Shown: in pieces, positions 35,106 to 59,089 of the stretch
How positions within the stretch are numbered: the stretch's first letter is position 1
Layout of the letters: every line of letters begins with the position of its first letter
Virus record (IMG/VR): IMGVR_UViG_3300020434_000055
Strand: one strand, 5' to 3'
DNA: 64,000 bases
From: a virus
Taxonomy: Duplodnaviria > Caudoviricetes
Translations under genes and position numbers: made by a program
The notes under the pieces: generated by a model
What the model was told of the DNA's origin: nothing
Databases searched by the model: none
The model's input: the letters and a program-made list of their open reading frames with translations, nothing else

Positions 35106-35130
35106 TATTTATATTTTGGTACTATAAATA
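35106..35130. promoter_or_regulatory. Back-to-back divergent TATAAATA late promoters
   Basis: TATTTATA 35106-35113 and TATAAATA 35123-35130. Confidence 0.7.
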
Positions 35131-35137
35131 GAGTTAT

Positions 35138-35299
35138 ATGGAAACCCTATTTTTTACTGGAACACTTATAGCGTCAGGAATAAATCATATTTTGTGGCAC
35201 TCACAACCATCTCCTGAACAACTAGAACGAGAAGCCTACTGGGCTCGACAAATAAGAATCTGGAAAAATCAAAGGGAACAAGAACAAAAGCACCTTTAA
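35138..35299 (+). CDS. 53-aa hypothetical protein
   Basis: ATG 7 nt after TATAAATA. Confidence 0.5.
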   Translation: METLFFTGTLIASGINHILWHSQPSPEQLEREAYWARQIRIWKNQREQEQKHL

Positions 35300-35335
35300 T
35301 TTTATCTCCCAACATTTAGGTTAAATACATTTATA

Positions 35336-35416
35336 ATGAGTGTATTAGCAATATTTTTTACGCTAGTCGTACTAGCAGTTGTCGGCGCACTTATTGTAGT
35401 GATGCTGGAGAAATAA
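35336..35416 (+). CDS. 26-aa membrane microprotein
   Basis: After TAAATA 35322-35327; TAATG-coupled to htrA. Confidence 0.55.
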   Translation: MSVLAIFFTLVVLAVVGALIVVMLEK

Positions 35417-36630
35417 TGTTAATCAGATTAATTTGTATAGTAAGTTTAGTCCTAATTTCACTCAATTCACCTGCTCGAAGTGAGGATTCAAAAGAATGGA
35501 AATGGAAAAATGCGTTTAGTGCCGTTGTAGTAATTACGGGTCAACGCCAAGCTTCTACTGAAAGATTTGTAGTACCAGATGATGACCTTTCGCCCGATCC
35601 TTACAAAGATTTTTTTAAAGAATTTGATGAAACACCTGAAGTAATAATTCCCCCTAAGAACTCTTTGGGAACAGGGTTCTTTATTAGTGAAATCCATGTA
35701 GTAACAAATTATCACGTTGTTAAAGGTATGGATAGTTTAGTTCTATACGCATACGATTATCCATTTAAAATTACAGATGTAGAATTAATAGGGTTTGATG
35801 AAACGGCAGATATTGCCATATTAGAAGTTGGTCAAGATATAAATCATACAATTCTTGAATGGGCAGATGAAGTTCCTTTAATGGGAGATGATGTTTATGC
35901 TTTAGGTCATGGTATGAATTTAATATGGACATTGTCAAAAGGAATATTAAGTTATGATTATAGACCTAATCCTGGAAATAGTTTTGTTCATTACTATCAA
36001 GTAGATGCTGTTATAAATCCTGGAAACTCTGGAGGACCTTTACTTAATGAAGAAGGAAAAATTATTGGTGTTAATACTCTTTTAATCTCTCCTATTGAAT
36101 ATTTTATAGGATATGGATATGTAATCCCATTTCAATTAGCAGAAAGAGTAGCAGGTCAAATTATTCAAACAGGAGTTCATGTTAAGCCTTCTATAGGAAT
36201 AATGATGGGAATAATTGATGTACAAGAAGAATACGATAAGATAATAGCGGCAGGTTTAAATCAATTTTTAGAAATTAAAGAAGTTAGTAAAGGGTCTTCA
36301 GCTGAACGCTTTGGACTAAAAGCAAAAGATCTTATTTTAAAAATAGATGGTTATTATATTGAAGTTGTCCCCAATGTAATTGAAGTGTTATGGCAAAGAA
36401 ATCCTGGAGACGAAATCATTTTTGAAATTTATAGGGATGGTGAAATTATAGAAGTTCCTGTAATATTAGGTCGAGATCCTACAATTGAAATTATTGAAGT
36501 TGAAGTAATAGATGAAGAAGAATTAGAAGAAGAAGAACTTTTGCCATCAGAAGACATTCCTTATGATGACGAAGTAGAAGATGAAATAATAGAAACTATC
36601 GACGAAACAGATACAACACAGGCTTGGTAA
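35416..36630 (+). CDS. htrA: HtrA/DegP-like serine protease with PDZ domain and acidic tail
   Basis: Signal peptide, GTGF, VTNYHVV, DIAIL, GNSGGPL. Confidence 0.93.
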   Translation: MLIRLICIVSLVLISLNSPARSEDSKEWKWKNAFSAVVVITGQRQASTERFVVPDDDLSPDPYKDFFKEFDETPEVIIPPKNSLGTGFFISEIHVVTNYHVVKGMDSLVLYAYDYPFKITDVELIGFDETADIAILEVGQDINHTILEWADEVPLMGDDVYALGHGMNLIWTLSKGILSYDYRPNPGNSFVHYYQVDAVINPGNSGGPLLNEEGKIIGVNTLLISPIEYFIGYGYVIPFQLAERVAGQIIQTGVHVKPSIGIMMGIIDVQEEYDKIIAAGLNQFLEIKEVSKGSSAERFGLKAKDLILKIDGYYIEVVPNVIEVLWQRNPGDEIIFEIYRDGEIIEVPVILGRDPTIEIIEVEVIDEEELEEEELLPSEDIPYDDEVEDEIIETIDETDTTQAW

Positions 36631-36931
36631 TGGAATGGTTGTTTGTTGTCTATTATAGTATTGCATTTACATTTCTTATATGGATGATATGGTTTAGAAA
36701 ATGACAGGACTAATAACAATGTTTAAAGTATTGTTTGGTTTCTTTGCAATATGTTTTGGGTGCGGAGTAATACTTTGGTTAATGTTGGATGAAAAACCTT
36801 GGAGGAAAAATTCTAAGTTTCGAGCTTGGCTAAAAAAGAAAGAAAACAAATAAATGGATTTGATATTCCTGCTAATTGTTATTGTTATGATATTAATAAG
36901 ATTAGGCAGAAACGATAAAGATAAAAAATGA
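36630..36931 (+). CDS. Three consecutive membrane microproteins (36630-36704, 36701-36853, 36854-36931)
   Basis: 24, 50 and 25 aa hydrophobic ORFs with overlapping or abutting start/stop codons. Confidence 0.55.
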
Positions 36932-37317
36932 AAAAACTATTATTAACAATTATTTTTATGTTTTTTATGTTGCCAGCACAGGCATCATTAAAATTATTAA
37001 TGGCACACAATCCTGCTTGTGGCATATGTCAAAAATTTATAAAAGAAGTAGCAGTAGACTACAATGATTCTAAAATAGCTGAAAAACTACCATTAGTAAT
37101 CATTAGTGTAAGTGAACAGCCTGAATGGTTTAAACAAGCATATAGAGAAAACAGAATTAAAGTTATTAGAGGAACACCAACTTTTATTATTTGGAATGGT
37201 CGAAAAGAATTGGGTAGAATAATAGGTTATCATAGTAAAGATAGATTTTATGATAGACTTTTATCATTTTTTCCTAGGGACTACTTAGAAAGTTCATTGA
37301 TCCTAGAGGAACAATAA
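36928..37317 (+). CDS. Exported thioredoxin-fold protein (SoxS-like)
   Basis: Signal peptide, CGIC, GTPTF..W..RKELGRI.GY. Confidence 0.8.
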   Translation: MKKLLLTIIFMFFMLPAQASLKLLMAHNPACGICQKFIKEVAVDYNDSKIAEKLPLVIISVSEQPEWFKQAYRENRIKVIRGTPTFIIWNGRKELGRIIGYHSKDRFYDRLLSFFPRDYLESSLILEEQ

Positions 37318-37665
37318 TGGACTTTTTGTTTGGCGTTTTAATATCAATTTATTGTGGTTGGATCCTAGCACAAATTATTATAGGATATTTAGAAGAGGGT
37401 ATGAAGTAATGTGGAAAAAACTTTGGAACTGGAAAATAAAAATAATTCGTAAGTACCCGGTTTGGTGTGCCTATGCGGCATGGCTAGAAGGAATAATAAT
37501 TGGAATCTTAATTTATCATTTCTGGATGATGGATGTATTAAGTTGTTGTAAGGAATATTAAATATGTGGTGGTGGTGGACATTTTTTAAAGAATTATTAA
37601 TAGACTTTGCACCTTGGATCTTGACTATATTAGCAATTTTGTTTATAATAGCAATAATGATATGA
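37317..37665 (+). CDS. Three consecutive membrane microproteins (37317-37409, 37409-37561, 37564-37665)
   Basis: 30, 50 and 33 aa hydrophobic ORFs, coupled or abutting. Confidence 0.55.
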
Positions 37666-37871
37666 CCAAAGAAGGTGTGACAGAACAAAATTTTAGTATG
37701 AGTAGCCACGAGATCTACAGATTTCCATGTATTGGTGTTTGTAGTATAGATCTCAATAGCGGATATTGTTTAGGTTGTAGTCGTACTTTAGAAGAAATAT
37801 TTAAATGGGAAGACCCAAATACTTCTATGGATTGGAAGTCAAAAAACGAAGAAGAACTCAAAACTAGATGA
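37662..37871 (+). CDS. DUF1289-like Cys-rich (putative Fe-S) protein
   Basis: PCIGVCSID...YCLGCSRTLEEI..W. Confidence 0.85.
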   Translation: MTKEGVTEQNFSMSSHEIYRFPCIGVCSIDLNSGYCLGCSRTLEEIFKWEDPNTSMDWKSKNEEELKTR

Positions 37872-37978
37872 TAGATCCAAAAATTCAAAAAGAAATCAAC
37901 AGACAAAAATATTTTACCTTCGCTGGCATTATTCTTATGCTAATAGTAATTGGTCTTACATATTGGATGGTTGCATAA
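37868..37978 (+). CDS. 36-aa membrane microprotein
   Basis: ATGA-coupled; one TM segment. Confidence 0.55.
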   Translation: MIDPKIQKEINRQKYFTFAGIILMLIVIGLTYWMVA

Positions 37979-37984
37979 TCTAAC

Positions 37985-38013
37985 TTGACAAGTGCCCAAT
38001 TTTGTAATATACT
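37985..38013 (+). promoter_or_regulatory. sigma70-type promoter
   Basis: TTGACA-17-TATACT. Confidence 0.75.
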
Positions 38014-38019
38014 TTGAAT

Positions 38020-38202
38020 ATGGCATTAAAAGTTCTTACTAAAAACGTACAACTAGTAGGGCGCCAAGAGAGAAATCAGAAAGAATTAGAAGAATTCGCG
38101 GCAAAAATAGCACAACAACAAGACACAGGAGTAATAAACTATGGCAAAGAAAAAAGTAAAAGTAAAAGAACATTACGTAAAAAAACTATTAAAAACTTTT
38201 AG
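38020..38202 (+). CDS. Hypothetical protein
   Basis: ATG just after the promoter. Confidence 0.5.
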   Translation: MALKVLTKNVQLVGRQERNQKELEEFAAKIAQQQDTGVINYGKEKSKSKRTLRKKTIKNF

Positions 38203-38404
38203 TCTTACACGTAAAAGAAAAGCAAAACATAAAGTTATTAATATTAATAACTATGAACGATATTGGGATCAATCAACTCCAACTGGACACCAAATAAGAA
38301 TAGTATGTCAAGATGATTCAACATTACATATTAATCTGAATTGGCCAAAAGGATACAATCCAAGAATTCATAACGTAGATTCTAAAAGATGGCAAATACG
38401 TTGA
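38141..38404 (+). CDS. Hypothetical basic protein
   Basis: GGAG SD then ATG. Confidence 0.65.
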   Translation: MAKKKVKVKEHYVKKLLKTFSLTRKRKAKHKVININNYERYWDQSTPTGHQIRIVCQDDSTLHINLNWPKGYNPRIHNVDSKRWQIR

Positions 38405-41274: not shown

Positions 41275-41361
41275 ATGGCTACAATACCGCTCTTGATAAT
41301 CATTTTGGGGGTGTCTTGTTTACTTTTTTTACTTGTATTATGGATAACGTTATTCCTTTAA
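41275..41361 (+). CDS. 28-aa membrane microprotein
   Basis: GGAGG SD; MATIPLLIIILGVSCLLFLLVLWITLFL. Confidence 0.6.
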   Translation: MATIPLLIIILGVSCLLFLLVLWITLFL

Positions 41362-41407
41362 TAGACATTGTTTATTAAAGTAAAATAGGTCAAGAATAAA
41401 TACGTAT

Positions 41408-42868
41408 ATGCGATACGTAGAGTTCAAAAAAATAGCTGAAGCACAAACACTAGGTAGGTCTACATCTACAAGTGTCCCTGGTTATATCACTGCTGTAAAC
41501 AATTTATTAGCCACAAATCAACCAATAGCAGTTGGTCCAGAAGGTATACCAGTTGTTCCTAAACCAAATCAAAGACTACGAATTCCTACTACAAATCCAA
41601 CAGATTTAAAAAATTTTTTTGATACTCAAAAAATTACAACAACAGATAATAAAGAAGTATTAGTAAAAAATATTACAAAAACTGATAAAATAAAAGGTCA
41701 AAGCACAGCCGCGGCGGCTGGTGGTAGTGGTGAACAAATACCTAATAAACCTAATAGAGGAAATGTAGCAGAAGGTTTATTTGCAATTGCATTATACGAT
41801 ACAATTAAAAATGGTTCAACTAGTGGAGCTACTATAGTTTCCACAGCAACTAGAGGCTTACCTAGTGCATTATCAGGAGAAACAGAACTTCCGCATAGTC
41901 CTGTAGACAAATTAACTTTAAAAATAAATTTAGCGCCAGAAGACTTTGCTGGTTTAAAAAATGAAAAATTTTTAAAGAGTGATAAAGAAATACAAGGTTA
42001 CATGACACAAATGGCAAATTTTTGTAATAAAGAAATAAAAGATGTTAAACAGACTTTACAAACAAATCAACAAATTGACTCTGTTAACGTTATTGCAGAT
42101 GGTATATCTGATCAAAAAGGATCCAAAGTAGATGTTTTAATGAATATACTTTCAGGTGGAAAGAAAGAAACAGTAAAATATGAATATAGTGTAAAAGCTG
42201 GAGACATAAAACAGTTTGGACAAAGTTCAATCTTAGGTGGAAATACATCACAAAAGTTTTCGGCTGAACAAAGATTTCAAGCACAAATAGACTTTTGGGA
42301 ACAATTTGGTATTGAATTAGATGACGATAATAGACTAGAAGATGACTTTGTTAATACTGCTATGGCTAATCAACAAAACGATAAAAATGGTATACCAGGA
42401 GAAATAGTAAAAACTAAAGCAACAAAAACTAAAAAAGGTAAAGAGAAACGAATTACAGATCCAAATGCTTCAAATCCTTTTGATTATACATATGACAAAG
42501 CGGCTAAACAACTAAATGCAAATTTACAAAGATTTGAAGAAGATACTGTTAGAAGTATAATACAAGCAGTACAAAATCATGCTAGAGGAAATAATCCTAA
42601 TGCAAAAGTTTTAAATTTTGATGTAAACAAATATGAACAATTAGACTTTGAAAAACTTACACCTTTATTGCAATCAATAGAATTTAAAGCTCAAGGACCT
42701 AGACCTGGAGCTAAAATAAAAGCAACTCCGGAAATTAAAATATATTCAAAAACAGGAGCAAAGTGGAAAGAATTTCTAACAGTAAGACTTTATGTTACTC
42801 ATAAAAAAATTACTAACATGATAGAAAAAGAAGATGGTTTAACAGAGCTTGTTAACATGATTGATTAA
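41408..42868 (+). CDS. Late hypothetical protein, possible PD-(D/E)XK-fold domain
   Basis: TAAATA 41397-41402; GNVAEG...KVD...EYSVK. Confidence 0.5.
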   Translation: MRYVEFKKIAEAQTLGRSTSTSVPGYITAVNNLLATNQPIAVGPEGIPVVPKPNQRLRIPTTNPTDLKNFFDTQKITTTDNKEVLVKNITKTDKIKGQSTAAAAGGSGEQIPNKPNRGNVAEGLFAIALYDTIKNGSTSGATIVSTATRGLPSALSGETELPHSPVDKLTLKINLAPEDFAGLKNEKFLKSDKEIQGYMTQMANFCNKEIKDVKQTLQTNQQIDSVNVIADGISDQKGSKVDVLMNILSGGKKETVKYEYSVKAGDIKQFGQSSILGGNTSQKFSAEQRFQAQIDFWEQFGIELDDDNRLEDDFVNTAMANQQNDKNGIPGEIVKTKATKTKKGKEKRITDPNASNPFDYTYDKAAKQLNANLQRFEEDTVRSIIQAVQNHARGNNPNAKVLNFDVNKYEQLDFEKLTPLLQSIEFKAQGPRPGAKIKATPEIKIYSKTGAKWKEFLTVRLYVTHKKITNMIEKEDGLTELVNMID

Positions 42869-43658: not shown

Positions 43659-43691
43659 TTAAATTCGCCAAATAAAATAAATACTACTATA

Positions 43692-44027
43692 ATGAAAAAG
43701 TGTTTACTAATATTACTGGCTATACTATTTTTATCTACCCAAACTATGGCGTTAGAATATAAGCCGGGTAAGAAACATCTAAACAAAGAAGGTGTTGTTG
43801 GTTTATTATTAATTCTTAATGGAAAAATGATAGAACACGTTTTCAAACCAAACATATCTGCTTGTATGAAATCCAAAAGAATAGCACAAAGAGAAATGGA
43901 TTCGAGCAACGAATCAAAAGGAGCAAGAGTAATTTTTACTTGTAAAATACTCGTAGCAGATTTAGAAGAAGATTCTCAAACCAAATATGGTTTAAGAATT
44001 ATAAAAGTACACTCAGGAGTAAATTAA
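43692..44027 (+). CDS. Exported protein with a two-Cys domain
   Basis: Signal peptide; CMKSKRIAQR...FTC; TAAATA 43678-43683. Confidence 0.75.
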   Translation: MKKCLLILLAILFLSTQTMALEYKPGKKHLNKEGVVGLLLILNGKMIEHVFKPNISACMKSKRIAQREMDSSNESKGARVIFTCKILVADLEEDSQTKYGLRIIKVHSGVN

Positions 44028-45946: not shown

Positions 45947-46045
45947 TTATTTGACAAGCATAGGTACAATAATTATGAAGCCTAACATTACGGCAACATA
46001 ATAAATCAACCAATGCGTGATATTCTCTGATGGTTTAAATTTCAT
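45947..46045 (-). CDS. 32-aa membrane microprotein
   Basis: MKFKPSENITHWLIYYVAVMLGFIIIVPMLVK. Confidence 0.5.
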   Translation of the reverse strand: MKFKPSENITHWLIYYVAVMLGFIIIVPMLVK

Positions 46046-49025: not shown

Positions 49026-49562
49026 ATGAAGGGTAAAAGAATGTTCAAAAGAGTTCAAGTTAAAGCAAGTCGAATGGTAGCAGACTTTTTTGATTGGTTA
49101 AAGAAATCAGAATTAATAGAATTAGATAAGATTGATCCACTTGATGATCCAGTAAGACCCGAACTAACTAATCAATTTAGAACAACTATTGGTCGTAAGA
49201 TATATGGCCTTAAAGATGAAAAAGGTGATATAGCGGCGGTTATGTGTTTTGCATTTACAAATGAAATACCAACAACTGTAGAAGAACTAGAGTTAATGAG
49301 TATAGATGCACACAATCAAGGTATTCATAGAGCAGGCGTTGGTGGTAATATTGCAATAGCATATACAGTATGGTCAACTAAAAGAGGTGGCGGTAAACGT
49401 ATTGTTAAAGAAGTATTTAAAATGATTAAAAAATCAAACCACTTAATTCGTTTAGTTACGCTATCACCATTAACACAAATGGCACGAGACTTTCATATAA
49501 GGAATGGTGCTAAAGAACTTCAAGTTAATAAAGAAACACAAAATTTTGAATACTTAATATGA
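49026..49562 (+). CDS. Hypothetical protein, possible GNAT fold
   Basis: AYTVWS..RGGGK, A..FH.RNGA. Confidence 0.45.
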   Translation: MKGKRMFKRVQVKASRMVADFFDWLKKSELIELDKIDPLDDPVRPELTNQFRTTIGRKIYGLKDEKGDIAAVMCFAFTNEIPTTVEELELMSIDAHNQGIHRAGVGGNIAIAYTVWSTKRGGGKRIVKEVFKMIKKSNHLIRLVTLSPLTQMARDFHIRNGAKELQVNKETQNFEYLI

Positions 49563-49812
49563 TAAAAAAGCTACTAGTTTTTATAGGAATCCTTTTTATA
49601 ATAACACTGGTTGTATTATCTTTCTACGGCAATGCTTGAGCTATTAGTATTTGCAACCTGTTTTACCCTACTAGTTTTGCTAATTGGTAACCCTTTTCGT
49701 TAGGTATGTTAGGTTTACTTGGTTTCTTCGGTTTTAAGGAAATTTGGTTACAACCACCTTATTGTTGTATTTTTGCAACACCTACTTGGTCATCTTTTCA
49801 ACACAATTGAAA

Positions 49813-50325
49813 TTACTTTGTGAATAACAAGTATATTGTTATGTCCTTTTTACGCCTGAATTTTAGCGTATCATTATCGATTTGATATACATTAAGTGGA
49901 CCGCCTAGCTTTTGAATTAGTTCTTCTGTATCAACCATAGCGTGTGCTGATGCTCTAAGCCTGACCATTGGATCATCGTGCCAATGCTTCATTTTGATTT
50001 TTGTTCCCCACACTAACGGCCACCAGTGTAATGGGTTTCGTCCAAACAGTTCTGCAAGAGCTAACCACCCTACTAAAGGAAACGCTGTTAAAGGTTCTAT
50101 CCACCATGGCATAAAATTGAAAGTAAACTTATCAATTATGTGAACTATGCCCCAATACGTTCCCCACACTGCGGCAAACAATGCCAAGACAAACCATGTT
50201 TCATCACGGTCAAAGTCACCATTATAGTCATCACGAGGTGCTCCGTAGTAAGGTGTTACACGTCTAACAGAGGGATGAAAGTTTGATCCTTTCTTCTTCC
50301 TTTTAGCCATTATATACAATCGCAA
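49813..50325 (-). CDS. Membrane protein
   Basis: Two hydrophobic segments. Confidence 0.7.
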   Translation of the reverse strand: MRLYIMAKRKKKGSNFHPSVRRVTPYYGAPRDDYNGDFDRDETWFVLALFAAVWGTYWGIVHIIDKFTFNFMPWWIEPLTAFPLVGWLALAELFGRNPLHWWPLVWGTKIKMKHWHDDPMVRLRASAHAMVDTEELIQKLGGPLNVYQIDNDTLKFRRKKDITIYLLFTK

Positions 50326-50410
50326 ATAGTATTAGCTATCATTAAAATTATAACATAACCCATATAACCAACACAACAATATAAAACTATTTTTTCCCAA
50401 ATATTAAACA

Positions 50411-50605
50411 TTATACACTAGTGCCTGCTCTTTTATCCTTTATAGCATTCACAATTTCTTTAAACATTGTATCAATCTCAGTGATCATATCCCATAGTGT
50501 AGCCATATCTCCATACTGCTTTGCTAATATGAATAATATTAAAATTAAGCATATTGAATTAAGGAGTGTAGCTATTTTAAAGATCATACTACTATTTAAA
50601 AGCAT
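50411..50605 (-). CDS. Small membrane protein
   Basis: ORF track. Confidence 0.5.
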   Translation of the reverse strand: MLLNSSMIFKIATLLNSICLILILFILAKQYGDMATLWDMITEIDTMFKEIVNAIKDKRAGTSV

Positions 50606-50641
50606 TAGGTAGGTTTGAATTTTAGAAGTGACTATGCAACC

Positions 50642-50767
50642 TTAGGATATTAATTTGTCTATATGCCCTGTTACTACTAGATAAACAAGAACTATTCCTA
50701 CAGCTATAATAAAGCGTAAAGACCAAACACTGACCTTTTCCCAGTACTGTATATCCTTATTGTCCAT
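50642..50767 (-). CDS. 41-aa membrane microprotein
   Basis: MDNKDIQYWEKVSVWSLRFIIAVGIVLVYLVVTGHIDKLIS; TAAATA upstream. Confidence 0.5.
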   Translation of the reverse strand: MDNKDIQYWEKVSVWSLRFIIAVGIVLVYLVVTGHIDKLIS

Positions 50768-51731: not shown

Positions 51732-52008
51732 TACAAAACAAACGTTGAAGGTGCTAAAGTTTTTTGCACAACAAATAAATGATTGGACGTTGCTAAACGT
51801 TGCAAACTATAAGGACGAGGGCGTTGTAGATATTAGAAGTTATGACGTTGCTTGTTTATGTAAAGAGTATGCAAAGTTATTAAACAAAAGCAAATGCGAT
51901 GAACAGTTTAAAATTACTGTACAGGATGTTGCTACTGCATTTGATAACTTAGATACAGAGTTTAGGGAGTGTGTTGAAGAAGAATTTTATAAGCTAAAAA
52001 TATTTTAG
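51724..52008 (+). CDS. Hypothetical protein
   Basis: GAGGAGG SD. Confidence 0.75.
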   Translation: MLNTKQTLKVLKFFAQQINDWTLLNVANYKDEGVVDIRSYDVACLCKEYAKLLNKSKCDEQFKITVQDVATAFDNLDTEFRECVEEEFYKLKIF

Positions 52009-52263
52009 TTTAGTTTGCTTTTAACGTAAGCAATTATCTCGCCCCTGTAAGCTATTACGCCTCCTATTAACGGGGGGCCTAACAATACTAGCACCATTAA
52101 GTCTACCATATAAACATACTCCAATTGATTGTGCATACGCCACACAATGTTAAGAAGCCTACACTACTCACCGTAACAATTACGCCAAGCATCATCGCTT
52201 CAATTATATTCTTTCCTACTGCTTTTACTTTACTCACTTCTTTCCTTTCATGTTGTTTAGGTC

Positions 52264-57464: not shown

Positions 57465-59089
57465 CTAAGCCTCTTGCCATACTATCGGCACTTCTTTACT
57501 GAATATTAGGGAGGCAGTTAAGGGAGTAAAGCCCTTTGACAAGCAATCTCTCTTAAACTCCTCCCGGGCACTACGCAATGCGAGATCGTAATCGAATCCC
57601 ACATGGTAATAAATGTTCCGGAAATTACCGGATTGAAATGTGAATTGAAACTGCCTTTTGCTGTTAGGTCTTATCATGTCGCAAGTTCACCTTTCTCTAA
57701 TTTGTTTAATGGATCTTCTTCATAAAGATACCAAGGTAACTCTTCATCATCATAGATGTTATAAAATTGATTCTCTATTTCCTTATAGTCGTGTATTAAC
57801 TTTTCAGGTTCAACATCGTGCCAGCCTTTCATACCACCTGATAGAATATGTGTAAGAGTCTCACTATGTCCATCGCAACCATGTTCTTTCATTATGTTAT
57901 GATATTCAACTTGCATACATCTTTCAGCCATGACATAGTGCGTCAGCTGTAAAGCTCTTTCATCATGATGGATAACAGTCTCTAAAGGATCTATTAATGT
58001 AGCTCCTATATAAAATGTATTATTCATAATCCCAGTCTCCTACATGACATTCATCCCAGTGATAGTCGGCATGATGTTCGTCTGCTTTCTTTAATGCTTC
58101 TTCGTATGAACTTGCTGTTATAGTTGCTTCATGATGTATAGATTGTATTCCATATATTGTATATTCTTTTTGATTTAAATGTCGTTCAACATCCATACCC
58201 ATCTTCTTCTCATACTCAGCCTTCTGCAAAAGTTTGTCTTTATTTGTCAATGCCTACCTCCTCAGCAATTTGTTCCTCAACTTCTCCACCTTCAGGGTTG
58301 CCCCATTCACATTGATTACAAGCCTTCTCCACAGCTAAATCCTTTGTCTCTGATTCGTCATACCAACCATCAACATAAACTTCAGGCACCTCTACATATT
58401 GTTCGTACCATACCTTTTCATATGATGTGACCTTAAACTCTTTAGTCCTTGTCTTATGATGTCGTACTCCTGGCGCATACTTCATACCAAGGAACTCCTT
58501 TGATTGTGCTTTGTTTAATCTTACCATCCTAATCCAGCTCCAAATAAAATTAATATAATCATCGTTGGCACAACTATTGTCAGTGGCCAAAAGTCTAATA
58601 TTTCTAATATCAATTTTTTAGTTTTCTTCATGCCAGTCCTCCTCTACTTCATCTACATTATAATATGGTCCACCGAACATACCATCTTTAACTATTTTGT
58701 CTGCTTTGTCTAATGCTTCGTCTTCATCATCAGCTTCGATGACTATTGTTTCTAAATACTCAGCTTCTTCTCTGGAAGCATCTAGGTCAACATGAATCTT
58801 AAATTTAGCCATATACTTTATCCTCCATCTCCTTCATTCGTTCTATAAACTTTGCTTTCACTTCAGGCGTTGCAACAGCCATCAACTCTAAAAACAAATC
58901 CCAAGGTTGGATACGGTCAGTCTTATCAACATTCCATACACCTCGTTGAATTATATCATAAGCAATATCCAACGCATCATCGTCACCGTCGGCAAAGCCT
59001 TTGATAAATCTTTCTTCGTCTTGTTGATTCCAAGCCATTATATTATTGCCACCAATGTCGCGAATACAAACAAACCAACCATCGTCCAT
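57465..59089 (-). CDS. Run of six small acidic early ORFs (57465-57677, 57674-58027, 58020-58250, 58240-58590, 58618-58812, 58805-59089)
   Basis: ORF track; overlapping start/stop codons. Confidence 0.75.

Follow-up and report, generated by a model that had tools for sequence, protein, structure and literature searches.

A probable late-expressed island of exchangeable, tightly coupled microprotein genes, interleaved with genes for an HtrA-type protease and a SoxS-like thioredoxin, in an uncultured marine giant T4-like phage

The small membrane proteins Imm, Sp, RI and RIII of phage T4 alter the handling of superinfection or lysis. T4-like genomes also carry hyperplastic regions, in which small lineage-variable accessory genes lie between core genes (PMC4122927; PMC2839356), whole genes are inserted, deleted or replaced between close relatives, and gene exchange is linked to promoter/stem-loop cassettes in the intergenic spaces (PeSLs; Comeau, Arbiol and Krisch 2014; Arbiol et al. 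2010). Here we describe a locus with the same whole-gene turnover in a 64,000-nucleotide stretch of viral DNA (IMG/VR record IMGVR_UViG_3300020434_000055, hereafter the window). Between positions 35336 and 37978 on the + strand, open reading frames (ORFs) for eight candidate membrane microproteins of 24-50 amino acids are interleaved with genes for an HtrA/DegS-type protease, a SoxS-like thioredoxin-fold protein and a DUF1289 protein. In contrast to PeSL-associated regions, the locus has no intergenic DNA, its genes are exchanged exactly at overlapping start/stop junctions, and single-helix peptides dominate. We regard it as probable, though well short of certain, that this is a hyperplastic island, expressed late, whose accessory genes are independently exchangeable and for the most part directed at the envelope, and not a fixed machine centred on HtrA.

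Like Imm, Sp, RI and RIII, the window peptides would be small phage-encoded envelope proteins, but they share no sequence similarity with the T4 proteins, are shorter (24-50 against 82-97 amino acids), are arrayed rather than scattered, and are known from their genes alone. In build (25-50 amino acids, one helix, short charged flanks) they resemble the bacterial single-pass regulators AcrZ, MgrB, MgtS, KdpF, CydX and YohP (reviewed in PMC12648545); those regulators are chromosomal, singly encoded and assigned to named families, whereas the window peptides are phage-borne, arrayed and match no described family. By analogy, the bacterial microproteins, which bind larger membrane proteins, would offer the best available model of peptide action. 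Holin-like gene clusters have been reported in actinophage lysis cassettes (Pollenz et al. 2022, PMC9671378), but the window array belongs to a lytic-type marine giant phage, lies far from lysis genes, is interleaved with genes for enzymes predicted to be secreted and consists of different families. Phages are already known to carry genes for small membrane proteins, hyperplastic regions and rows of holin-like genes; the novelty lies in the phage group, in at least eight undescribed peptide families, in the way these alternate with a tailed HtrA and a SoxS-like thioredoxin, and in the precision with which exchange respects the overlapping junctions.

Four lineages were compared: that of the window itself (W), together with contigs L001 and L129, both at about 95% DNA identity to it; the L002 group; L134, a 205-kb metagenome contig, with L006; and the L009 group. 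The genes of the unit, with their positions in the window, are as follows.

35336-35416 (+): m26, a 26-amino-acid single-helix peptide, in all four lineages and TAATG-coupled to HtrA in each.
35416-36630 (+): HtrA/DegS-type serine protease, 404 amino acids, with one PDZ domain, a putative signal peptide and a 51-amino-acid acidic tail.
36630-36704 (+): m24 (MEWLF...), a 24-amino-acid single-helix peptide, intact in three lineages.
36701-36853 (+): m50a, 50 amino acids, with a helix at the N-terminus and a basic tail behind it (...LDxKPWRK...).
36854-36931 (+): m25, 25 amino acids, with a helix and then a basic tail; probably a gene, found in the window lineage only (L001, L129).
36928-37317 (+): thioredoxin-fold protein, SoxS-like, 129 amino acids, with a CGIC site and a putative signal peptide (...PAQA/S).
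37317-37409 (+): m30, a 30-amino-acid single-helix peptide with an acidic C-terminus, in all four lineages; changes by codon position 4/1/9.
37409-37561 (+): m50b, 50 amino acids, a basic amphipathic helix, a Pro kink and a membrane helix, with ...SCC near the end.
37564-37665 (+): m33 (MWWWW...), 33 amino acids with a C-terminal helix; a probable gene, intact in three lineages.
37662-37871 (+): DUF1289 protein, 69 amino acids (from the ATG kept in relatives), with four Cys (CIGVC...CLGC).
37868-37978 (+): m36, 36 amino acids, with a basic N-terminus and a helix at the C-terminal end; it closes the unit and occurs in all four lineages.

All eleven ORFs start with ATG and together form an unbroken chain, the longest in the window, with ten junctions between -4 and +2 nucleotides (TAATG four times, ATGA four times, one gap of 0 and one of 2 nucleotides). 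The hallmarks of translational coupling are all present: a shared strand, overlapping or abutting stop and start codons at every junction, and no inner terminator. By comparison, the longest coupled chain in 500 first-order Markov simulations of the region was 1.3 ORFs on average and 3 at most. Coupled runs of three or more helix ORFs, too, were never produced by simulation. Each of the eight micro-ORFs contains exactly one hydrophobic window (17-residue Kyte-Doolittle mean of 1.84-3.16) between short charged flanks. An initial, sequence-only reading of this DNA had listed the same order of ORFs, junctions of ATGA, TAATG or at most 2 nucleotides, and one hydrophobic segment per micro-ORF, and on all three points it was right.

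Wherever a micro-ORF is present in the four lineages, its ATG, stop and frame are kept. Summed over the micro-ORFs and up53, a 53-amino-acid ORF just upstream that is described below, the minimum numbers of changes at the three codon positions are 81/52/132 (chi-square p 9e-9). The pooled ratio of nonsynonymous to synonymous differences per site (pN/pS) for the micro-ORFs of the window against L129, L002, L134 and L009 is 0.12, 0.41, 0.31 and 0.32, which is at least as low as for HtrA (0.29-0.55); the corresponding Fisher p-values of 1e-5, 6e-8, 2e-11 and 1e-6 overstate independence, because lineage pairs share ancestry and the distances are uncorrected. When W is compared with L002, m26, m24, m50b and m36 each have their lowest ratio in the proposed frame; the two alternative frames mostly give values of 0.6-3. 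Taken gene by gene, the coding signal is clear for m26, m24, m50a, m50b and m36, and fair for m30. For m26 the changes by codon position are 4/5/11 and pN/pS against W is 0.18-0.40 (the pair L002/L009 gives 1.07, on 4 differences only), with no consistent signal in the other two frames; for m24, pN/pS is 0.25 in the proposed frame, whereas the alternatives give 1.17 and 0.63; m50b shows changes of 10/8/25; and m36 combines changes of 9/7/19 with a pN/pS of 0.34-0.44 in frame against about 1 out of frame. The sequence-only reading had staked itself on conservation of the micro-ORF frames, and the frames are indeed kept, under purifying selection, so that most micro-ORFs are best regarded as real protein genes. 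Judged by these comparisons, at least six of the eight (m26, m24, m50a, m30, m50b and m36) are real genes.

The composition of the unit differs between lineages in the following way.

Window: m26, HtrA, m24, m50a, m25, thioredoxin, m30, m50b, m33, DUF1289, m36.
L002: m26, HtrA, m50a, m24, m30, m50b, 56-amino-acid lipoprotein, m33, DUF1289, m36.
L134: the order of L002 with an additional 31-amino-acid helix ORF.

The surroundings are common to all four lineages, with aminotransferase/2OG oxygenase genes (-) on one side, HtrA ... DUF1289, m36 in the middle, and GS and ICL genes (+) on the other. Within this frame, m24 and m50a are reversed in order between the window and L002/L134, and m25 and the thioredoxin are confined to the window lineage. 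In L129 the slot of m33 is filled exactly by an unrelated 23-amino-acid helix ORF, a relative of which occurs in L010, and in the L009 lineage m24 is split by a DUF454/YbaN gene, the 3' half of m50a is replaced by a 73-amino-acid ORF and m33 is absent. Tight junctions are restored after every rearrangement, and three pairs (m26-HtrA, m30-m50b and DUF1289-m36) form a core present in all four lineages. The micro-ORF genes behave as separate whole-gene cassettes. Of the original picture of a coupled envelope module built around HtrA, the thioredoxin and DUF1289, what survives is one compact coupled unit with most products predicted to be envelope-bound; the roles suggested for it in that reading, namely superinfection exclusion, lysis timing, or inhibition of transporters or proteases, are conjectural. 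The centring does not survive: the thioredoxin, together with m25, is found in one lineage only, m24 and m50a swap or break, m33 is replaced or missing, relatives of m50a and m50b occur elsewhere, and distant DUF1289 and HtrA genes lack such peptides alongside. DUF1289 itself, unlike most products of the unit, lacks an envelope signal as far as its sequence can be read.

Some of the inserted genes can be described further. The DUF454/YbaN insertion in m24 encodes an inner-membrane protein of 138 amino acids (NCBIfam, 5e-19). The 73-amino-acid ORF of the L009 lineage is basic, and its relatives adjoin an m50b-like gene in L139 and L140. Both changes fall within L009:5188-6106 and are also seen in L014, L089, L090, L130 and L131. 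The 56-amino-acid lipoprotein, absent from the window, lies between m50b and m33 or DUF1289 (L002:7652-7822, L134:3143-3313, L009:6254-6424) and has a lipobox LTSC or LISC and three further Cys.

Two of the peptides belong to families that extend well beyond this locus, with members in marine metagenomes. An exhaustive HMMER search gave 19 representatives of m50b at 50% clustering, with 39-73% identity in the alignment and the motif IRKYPVxCAYxAWLEGxIIGxLIYH, in which P17 and G28 are invariant; in an AlphaFold2 (AF2) model on the family alignment, a Pro kink separates a first helix from a second, long one, with a predicted local distance difference test score (pLDDT) of 86.7. Distant m50b members follow an SNase gene or a DegT-like gene, away from HtrA. 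For m50a, a profile of six sequences found 40 database clusters, and a word-based search with m50a alone found only one 96%-identical 83-amino-acid gene call on a short metagenome contig. Genes like m50a adjoin SoxS-like thioredoxin genes in L153 and L160, as do genes like m50b in L159 and L162, and a member of the m50a family stands in a micro-ORF array of L010. None of the eight peptides has a significant match in Pfam or PHROGs, the TciB-like (E 0.033) and Rz-like (E 0.031) matches being at noise level, and an ESM Atlas feature search with m50a and m50b returned unnamed clusters only, at 0.79-0.83, within the range of shuffled controls.

Coupled rows of 4-8 helix micro-ORFs also occur on other marine viral contigs, at L010:346-1459 (-) and L159:855-1773; these two rows share a 21-amino-acid 'SVYIL' peptide and a 46/55-amino-acid 'NGNK' peptide, and have in common with the locus described here m50a-like and m50b-like genes and the 23-amino-acid ORF of L129. 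In the window, 21 helix micro-ORFs exceed the hydrophobicity cut-off, 7 of them at this locus (m50b falls just below). Other single-helix ORFs of 23-64 amino acids lie at 49559-49703 and 41275-41361 (+) and at 50310-50767, 45947-46045, 52005-52195 and 58521-58631 (-), in gaps between larger genes and in some cases coupled in twos or threes. Helix micro-ORFs, as predicted from their sequences, are a genome-wide habit of this phage.

The three larger products could be assigned to families, as the sequence-only reading had proposed: HtrA by Pfam Trypsin_2 (2.6e-24) and PDZ_2 (2.9e-9, 37.5 bits against a cut-off of 27, residues 268-350), the CxxC protein by Thioredoxin_2 (31.2 bits against 27) and DUF1289 by PF06945 (54.1 bits against 27). 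The HtrA triad H100, D132 and S205 (GNSGG) is invariant in 18 aligned relatives, and the best solved relatives are DegP, DegQ and DegS (E 6.3e-32 to 2.3e-27). In NCBIfam the protein scores 200.9, 144.7 and 115.1 bits, far below the respective cut-offs of 416, 423 and 756, and by this measure it is a member of the family (MEROPS S1C) and not an equivalog of a named enzyme (DegP, DegQ or DegS). With DegS, DegQ and DegP (PDB 4A8A, 3GCN, 1KY9) it shares the trypsin fold, the His-Asp-Ser triad and a PDZ domain, and it may likewise be exported to the periplasm; it differs in having a single PDZ domain and a putative cleavable signal peptide, without the DegS anchor. Its N-terminus, read by eye and seen in the model, forms a helix at residues 2-16 followed by NSPA/RSE. 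The D/E-rich tail, first put at about 40 amino acids, comprises the last 51 residues, with 24 D/E and no K/R, and is predicted to be disordered. Neither the solved relatives nor the phage HtrA group at large have such a tail; it is restricted to this clade of HtrA genes and ends in W in all tail-bearing relatives. DegS-type PDZ domains bind aromatic C-termini. In the AF2 model the core has a pLDDT above 90 and residues 358-404 one of about 32, and since the tail is modelled as disordered, the model is uninformative on tail-PDZ docking. A literature search found no paper on an acidic-tailed phage HtrA.

Tail-less HtrA genes of about 360 codons are common on marine viral contigs, where ClpP, glutaredoxin or other genes follow. 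Among these distant relatives (39-50% identity, no acidic tail), a glutaredoxin-like gene comes directly after HtrA at L015:5026-5244 and L016:5080-5310, and a ClpP-like gene lies a few hundred bases on at L010:5458-6060 and L013:5721-6341; a pairing of protease and thiol-redox genes thus recurs among distant phage HtrA loci.

The likeness of the CxxC protein to SoxS, also part of the initial reading, was borne out: its best solved relative is PDB 3D4T/3DML (E 3.4e-5, residues 18-112), with PACGIC aligned to PGCLYC of 3D4T. We take this structure to be the periplasmic SoxS of Paracoccus pantotrophus, its PDB title being 'putative uncharacterized protein'. Both are small thioredoxin-fold proteins with P-x-C-x-x-C, exported in the case of SoxS and predicted to be so in ours, but the window gene is phage-borne, widespread on marine viral contigs in varied contexts, and without sox gene context. 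No sox genes were found in the window or in 23 related loci, which gives no indication of a role in the Sox sulfur-oxidation system, and the resemblance to SoxS would extend to fold and predicted location only. Relatives of the gene occur on 23 viral contigs in other contexts, with AxA-type sites kept. Both HtrA and the thioredoxin are probably exported by the Sec pathway, to judge from N-terminal h-regions ending in SPA/R and AQA/S. The DUF1289 protein has neither signal peptide nor membrane helix; its CIGVC...CLGC is invariant in relatives, its pN/pS is 0.11-0.18, and a search for solved relatives found none. DUF1289 genes occur widely among marine phages, cyanomyophage-like contigs among them, and there they have no neighbouring helix ORFs. 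A literature search brought up a single paper in which DUF1289 and phage both appear.

Several signals around the unit bear on its expression.

35123-35130 (+): late-promoter motif TATAAATA, T4-type, 7 nucleotides 5' of the up53 ATG.
35138-35299 (+): up53, a 53-amino-acid ORF, maybe the first gene of the unit; its coding status is uncertain.
35321-35328 (+): late-motif variant TTAAATAC, ATAAATAY with one mismatch, 7 nucleotides 5' of the m26 ATG.
37985-38013 (+): sigma-70-like promoter (TTGACA, 17 nucleotides, TATACT; 11 of 12 matches), which opens the next unit.

The TAAATA that had been noticed ahead of the first ORF lies within GGTTAAATACA, at a distance of 7 nucleotides from the first ATG, and does not vary among the relatives; the block AGGTTAAATACAYTTATA-ATG before m26 is likewise the same in all lineages, while the sequence farther upstream diverges. 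A second copy of TATAAATA, on the - strand at 35106-35113, faces the + copy and makes a divergent pair (35106-35130) ahead of up53, and the motif upstream of up53 is kept in the three up53-bearing lineages. The ORF up53 keeps its ATG, stop and in-frame indels in these three and is absent in the L002 lineage. The window holds 4 copies of TATAAATA against 15 expected, so that the motif is depleted, and all are intergenic. ATAAATAY stands 4-27 nucleotides 5' of 11 gene starts, including those of terminase and a virion protein (+ strand: 376-388, 1980-1993, 6976, 13526, 25557, 41396-41408, 43180 and 43677-43692; - strand: 34307, 34637 and 35112). The distance to the ATG is often just 4-7 nucleotides, as at terminase, the virion protein and a 486-amino-acid ORF at 41408; if ATAAATAY were the -10 element of the late promoter, many late mRNAs of the phage would be leaderless or nearly so. 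No terminator-like site was found on the + strand between 35300 and 38000. Given the late motifs, the lack of an inner + terminator and the sigma-70-like promoter after m36, we infer that the eleven ORFs of 35336-37978 are co-transcribed late, as one transcript that is possibly almost leaderless.

At the place of the sigma-70-like promoter, the L002 and L009 lineages have TTGACT, 17 nucleotides, TACAAT. Internal sigma-70-like promoters, for example at 37621-37649, are not claimed, 24 sites being found against 21.4 in shuffles. The next unit comprises ORFs of 62 and 87 amino acids, then GS and ICL; in the window (38020-38404) the two ORFs (about 60 and 87 amino acids) are basic, overlap by about 60 nucleotides, and are 79-84% identical in relatives. 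Contigs from RNA libraries of three studies cover parts of HtrA and 36589-36826 (the end of HtrA, m24 and m50a), as well as m24-m30-m50b of one relative, at a depth of 2-5. The very high RNA depth at 36412-36659 was rejected as expression: this GAA-rich DNA encodes the acidic tail, and GAA low-complexity contigs of other organisms, supplied by oligo-dT libraries, raise the depth thousands-fold as a mapping artefact.

The window has a GC content of 28-40% and encodes a T4-type large terminase, gp32, UvsX/RecA, a UvsW-like helicase and a DnaB-like helicase, the terminase being 53% identical to that of the Pseudomonas jumbo phage PA5oct. At least half of its sampled words are present in 14 marine DNA runs from at least six studies. 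Its source is an uncultured marine giant T4-like phage. A blastn search of the region against 50,697 phage records gave no match, and tblastn of HtrA against the same records found 25-31% identity only, mostly to DegQ/DegS/protease Do genes on bacterial contigs. Among viral contigs, a single-sequence scan returned no HtrA relatives and an alignment-based scan returned relatives; a metagenome scan with K-rich patterns gave at least six loci. Between lineages HtrA is only 54-59% identical, and pairwise nucleotide identity is uneven along the region.

In the reading that we favour, the island would most likely be read as a single late polycistronic mRNA, with its ORFs translated through tight start/stop coupling. 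It would deliver an exported HtrA/DegS-type protease, an exported SoxS-like thiol-disulfide oxidoreductase, a cytoplasmic four-Cys DUF1289 protein and eight unrelated single-pass membrane microproteins of 24-50 amino acids, which, to judge from their hydrophobic segments, would insert into the host inner membrane. Each peptide may then work alone on host inner-membrane or periplasmic machinery, with no fixed complex with HtrA; this mode of action is modelled, by analogy, on the bacterial membrane regulators of 25-50 amino acids and on the small T4 membrane proteins. A number of observations, beside the shared ancestry that affects the p-values above, weigh against this account. Translation of the micro-ORFs and membrane insertion of their products are predictions, and late timing would follow from a motif with one mismatch. 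Parts of the region share about 85-95% DNA identity between lineages against about 71% for HtrA, a pattern of recent recombination by which conservation is inflated. The frame of m25 is kept, but its changes (1 synonymous, 2 conservative) are too few for a test of this gene by itself, and the same holds for m33, with just 3 nucleotide changes in all. The changes in up53 (22/18/23 by codon position, pN/pS 0.44-0.69) show no third-position bias. Two of the four RNA libraries are oligo-dT and DNA carry-over is possible, and their contigs are not counted as expression. Finally, the coupling of m26 to HtrA in all four lineages could reflect a functional link.

This last observation lends some credit to a different account, in which the peptides would be anchors, adaptors, inhibitors or substrates of a dedicated machine of phage HtrA and thioredoxin, serving for example lysis timing or the clearing of host envelope proteins, with the W-ending tail as a PDZ ligand. 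Besides the TAATG coupling of m26, m30, m50b and m36 always co-occur with HtrA, genes like m50a or m50b adjoin SoxS-like thioredoxins in four other contig groups, and the terminal W is kept in all tail-bearing HtrAs. There is also a precedent in the T4 antiholin RI, which is degraded by DegP, a host protease of the HtrA family (Tran et al. 2007, as cited in PMC8385771), although deletion of degP is reported in PMC8385771 to have left T4 lysis inhibition unchanged. On the other hand, m50a and m50b have relatives without HtrA, HtrA relatives at 39-50% identity stand without these peptides, the L009 lineage has m24 and m50a broken and HtrA intact, and m26 can hardly reach a periplasmic protease, because membrane helix makes up nearly all of it, with 4-5 flanking residues on each side. 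Since most parts come and go without HtrA, we find this account rather improbable; the constant m26-HtrA coupling and the recurring adjacency of thioredoxin and peptide keep it alive. One could also speculate about a toolkit of marine giant phages, in which a dozen or more exchangeable single-helix families, in coupled late arrays with a secreted HtrA and thiol-oxidoreductase, mark or gate particular inner-membrane proteins of the host, or the phage's lysis factors, for the phage protease, the W-ending tail acting as a built-in PDZ ligand. We give this a small chance; if true, it would be a phage-encoded, programmable envelope proteolysis system. A lysis-control cassette would have holin- or antiholin-like helix peptides, an outer-membrane spanin in the relatives' 56-amino-acid lipoprotein, and late expression. 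Characterised holins, however, are larger than one-helix peptides of 24-36 amino acids. The late-promoter-like motifs, the lipobox LTSC of that lipoprotein and its weak match to an Rz-like spanin PHROG (E 0.03) would suit such a cassette, and actinophage lysis cassettes with several small membrane-protein genes are known (PMC9671378). The window, however, does not have the lipoprotein, the genes around the unit encode 2OG oxygenases, an aminotransferase, GS and ICL, and with no endolysin in the unit or its flanks and no significant match to a holin, spanin or other family in PHROG and Pfam, a lysis cassette is unlikely.

More basic doubts concern whether the micro-ORFs encode proteins at all. 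They could be untranslated, either as chance hydrophobic frames, which T-rich codons in DNA of 31% GC readily yield, or through conservation at the RNA or DNA level; m30 and m33 DNA is nearly identical between lineages, and most micro-ORFs are shorter than the length cut-offs of gene callers. Against this stand codon-position and pN/pS signals that are peculiar to the frames proposed here, starts and stops kept while order is shuffled with boundaries intact, the wide protein families of m50a and m50b, and the failure of simulations to yield such chains. A 106-amino-acid antisense ORF at 37389-37709 (-), overlapping m50b and m33, was considered as the real gene and rejected, because in L002 it is broken into pieces of 50 and 27 amino acids. 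The non-coding explanation is largely refuted for six of the eight, and for the locus as a whole it has become very improbable. Nor is there much room for the idea that a gene for a multi-pass membrane protein decayed through frameshifts and left the peptides as its remains. Frameshifts can produce overlapping junctions of the ATGA and TAATG kind, and some m50a relatives carry permease-like JGI names, but no relative has a fused long ORF, the boundaries are constant across lineages as order is permuted and single families stand alone elsewhere, and no Pfam membrane-protein family matches; we consider it barely credible.

Genes under about 50 codons mostly escape annotation, and public gene calls on related contigs missed most of the micro-ORFs described here, of which at least six are under clear selection in abundant uncultured ocean phages. 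Among them, m50a and m50b define families of tens of database clusters with no entry in Pfam or PHROGs, and the families are short enough for direct synthesis and testing. The turnover of cassettes beside genes for a protease and a redox enzyme, both probably secreted, suggests that the phage has rapidly evolving tools against the host envelope, the interface that decides superinfection, nutrient uptake and lysis.

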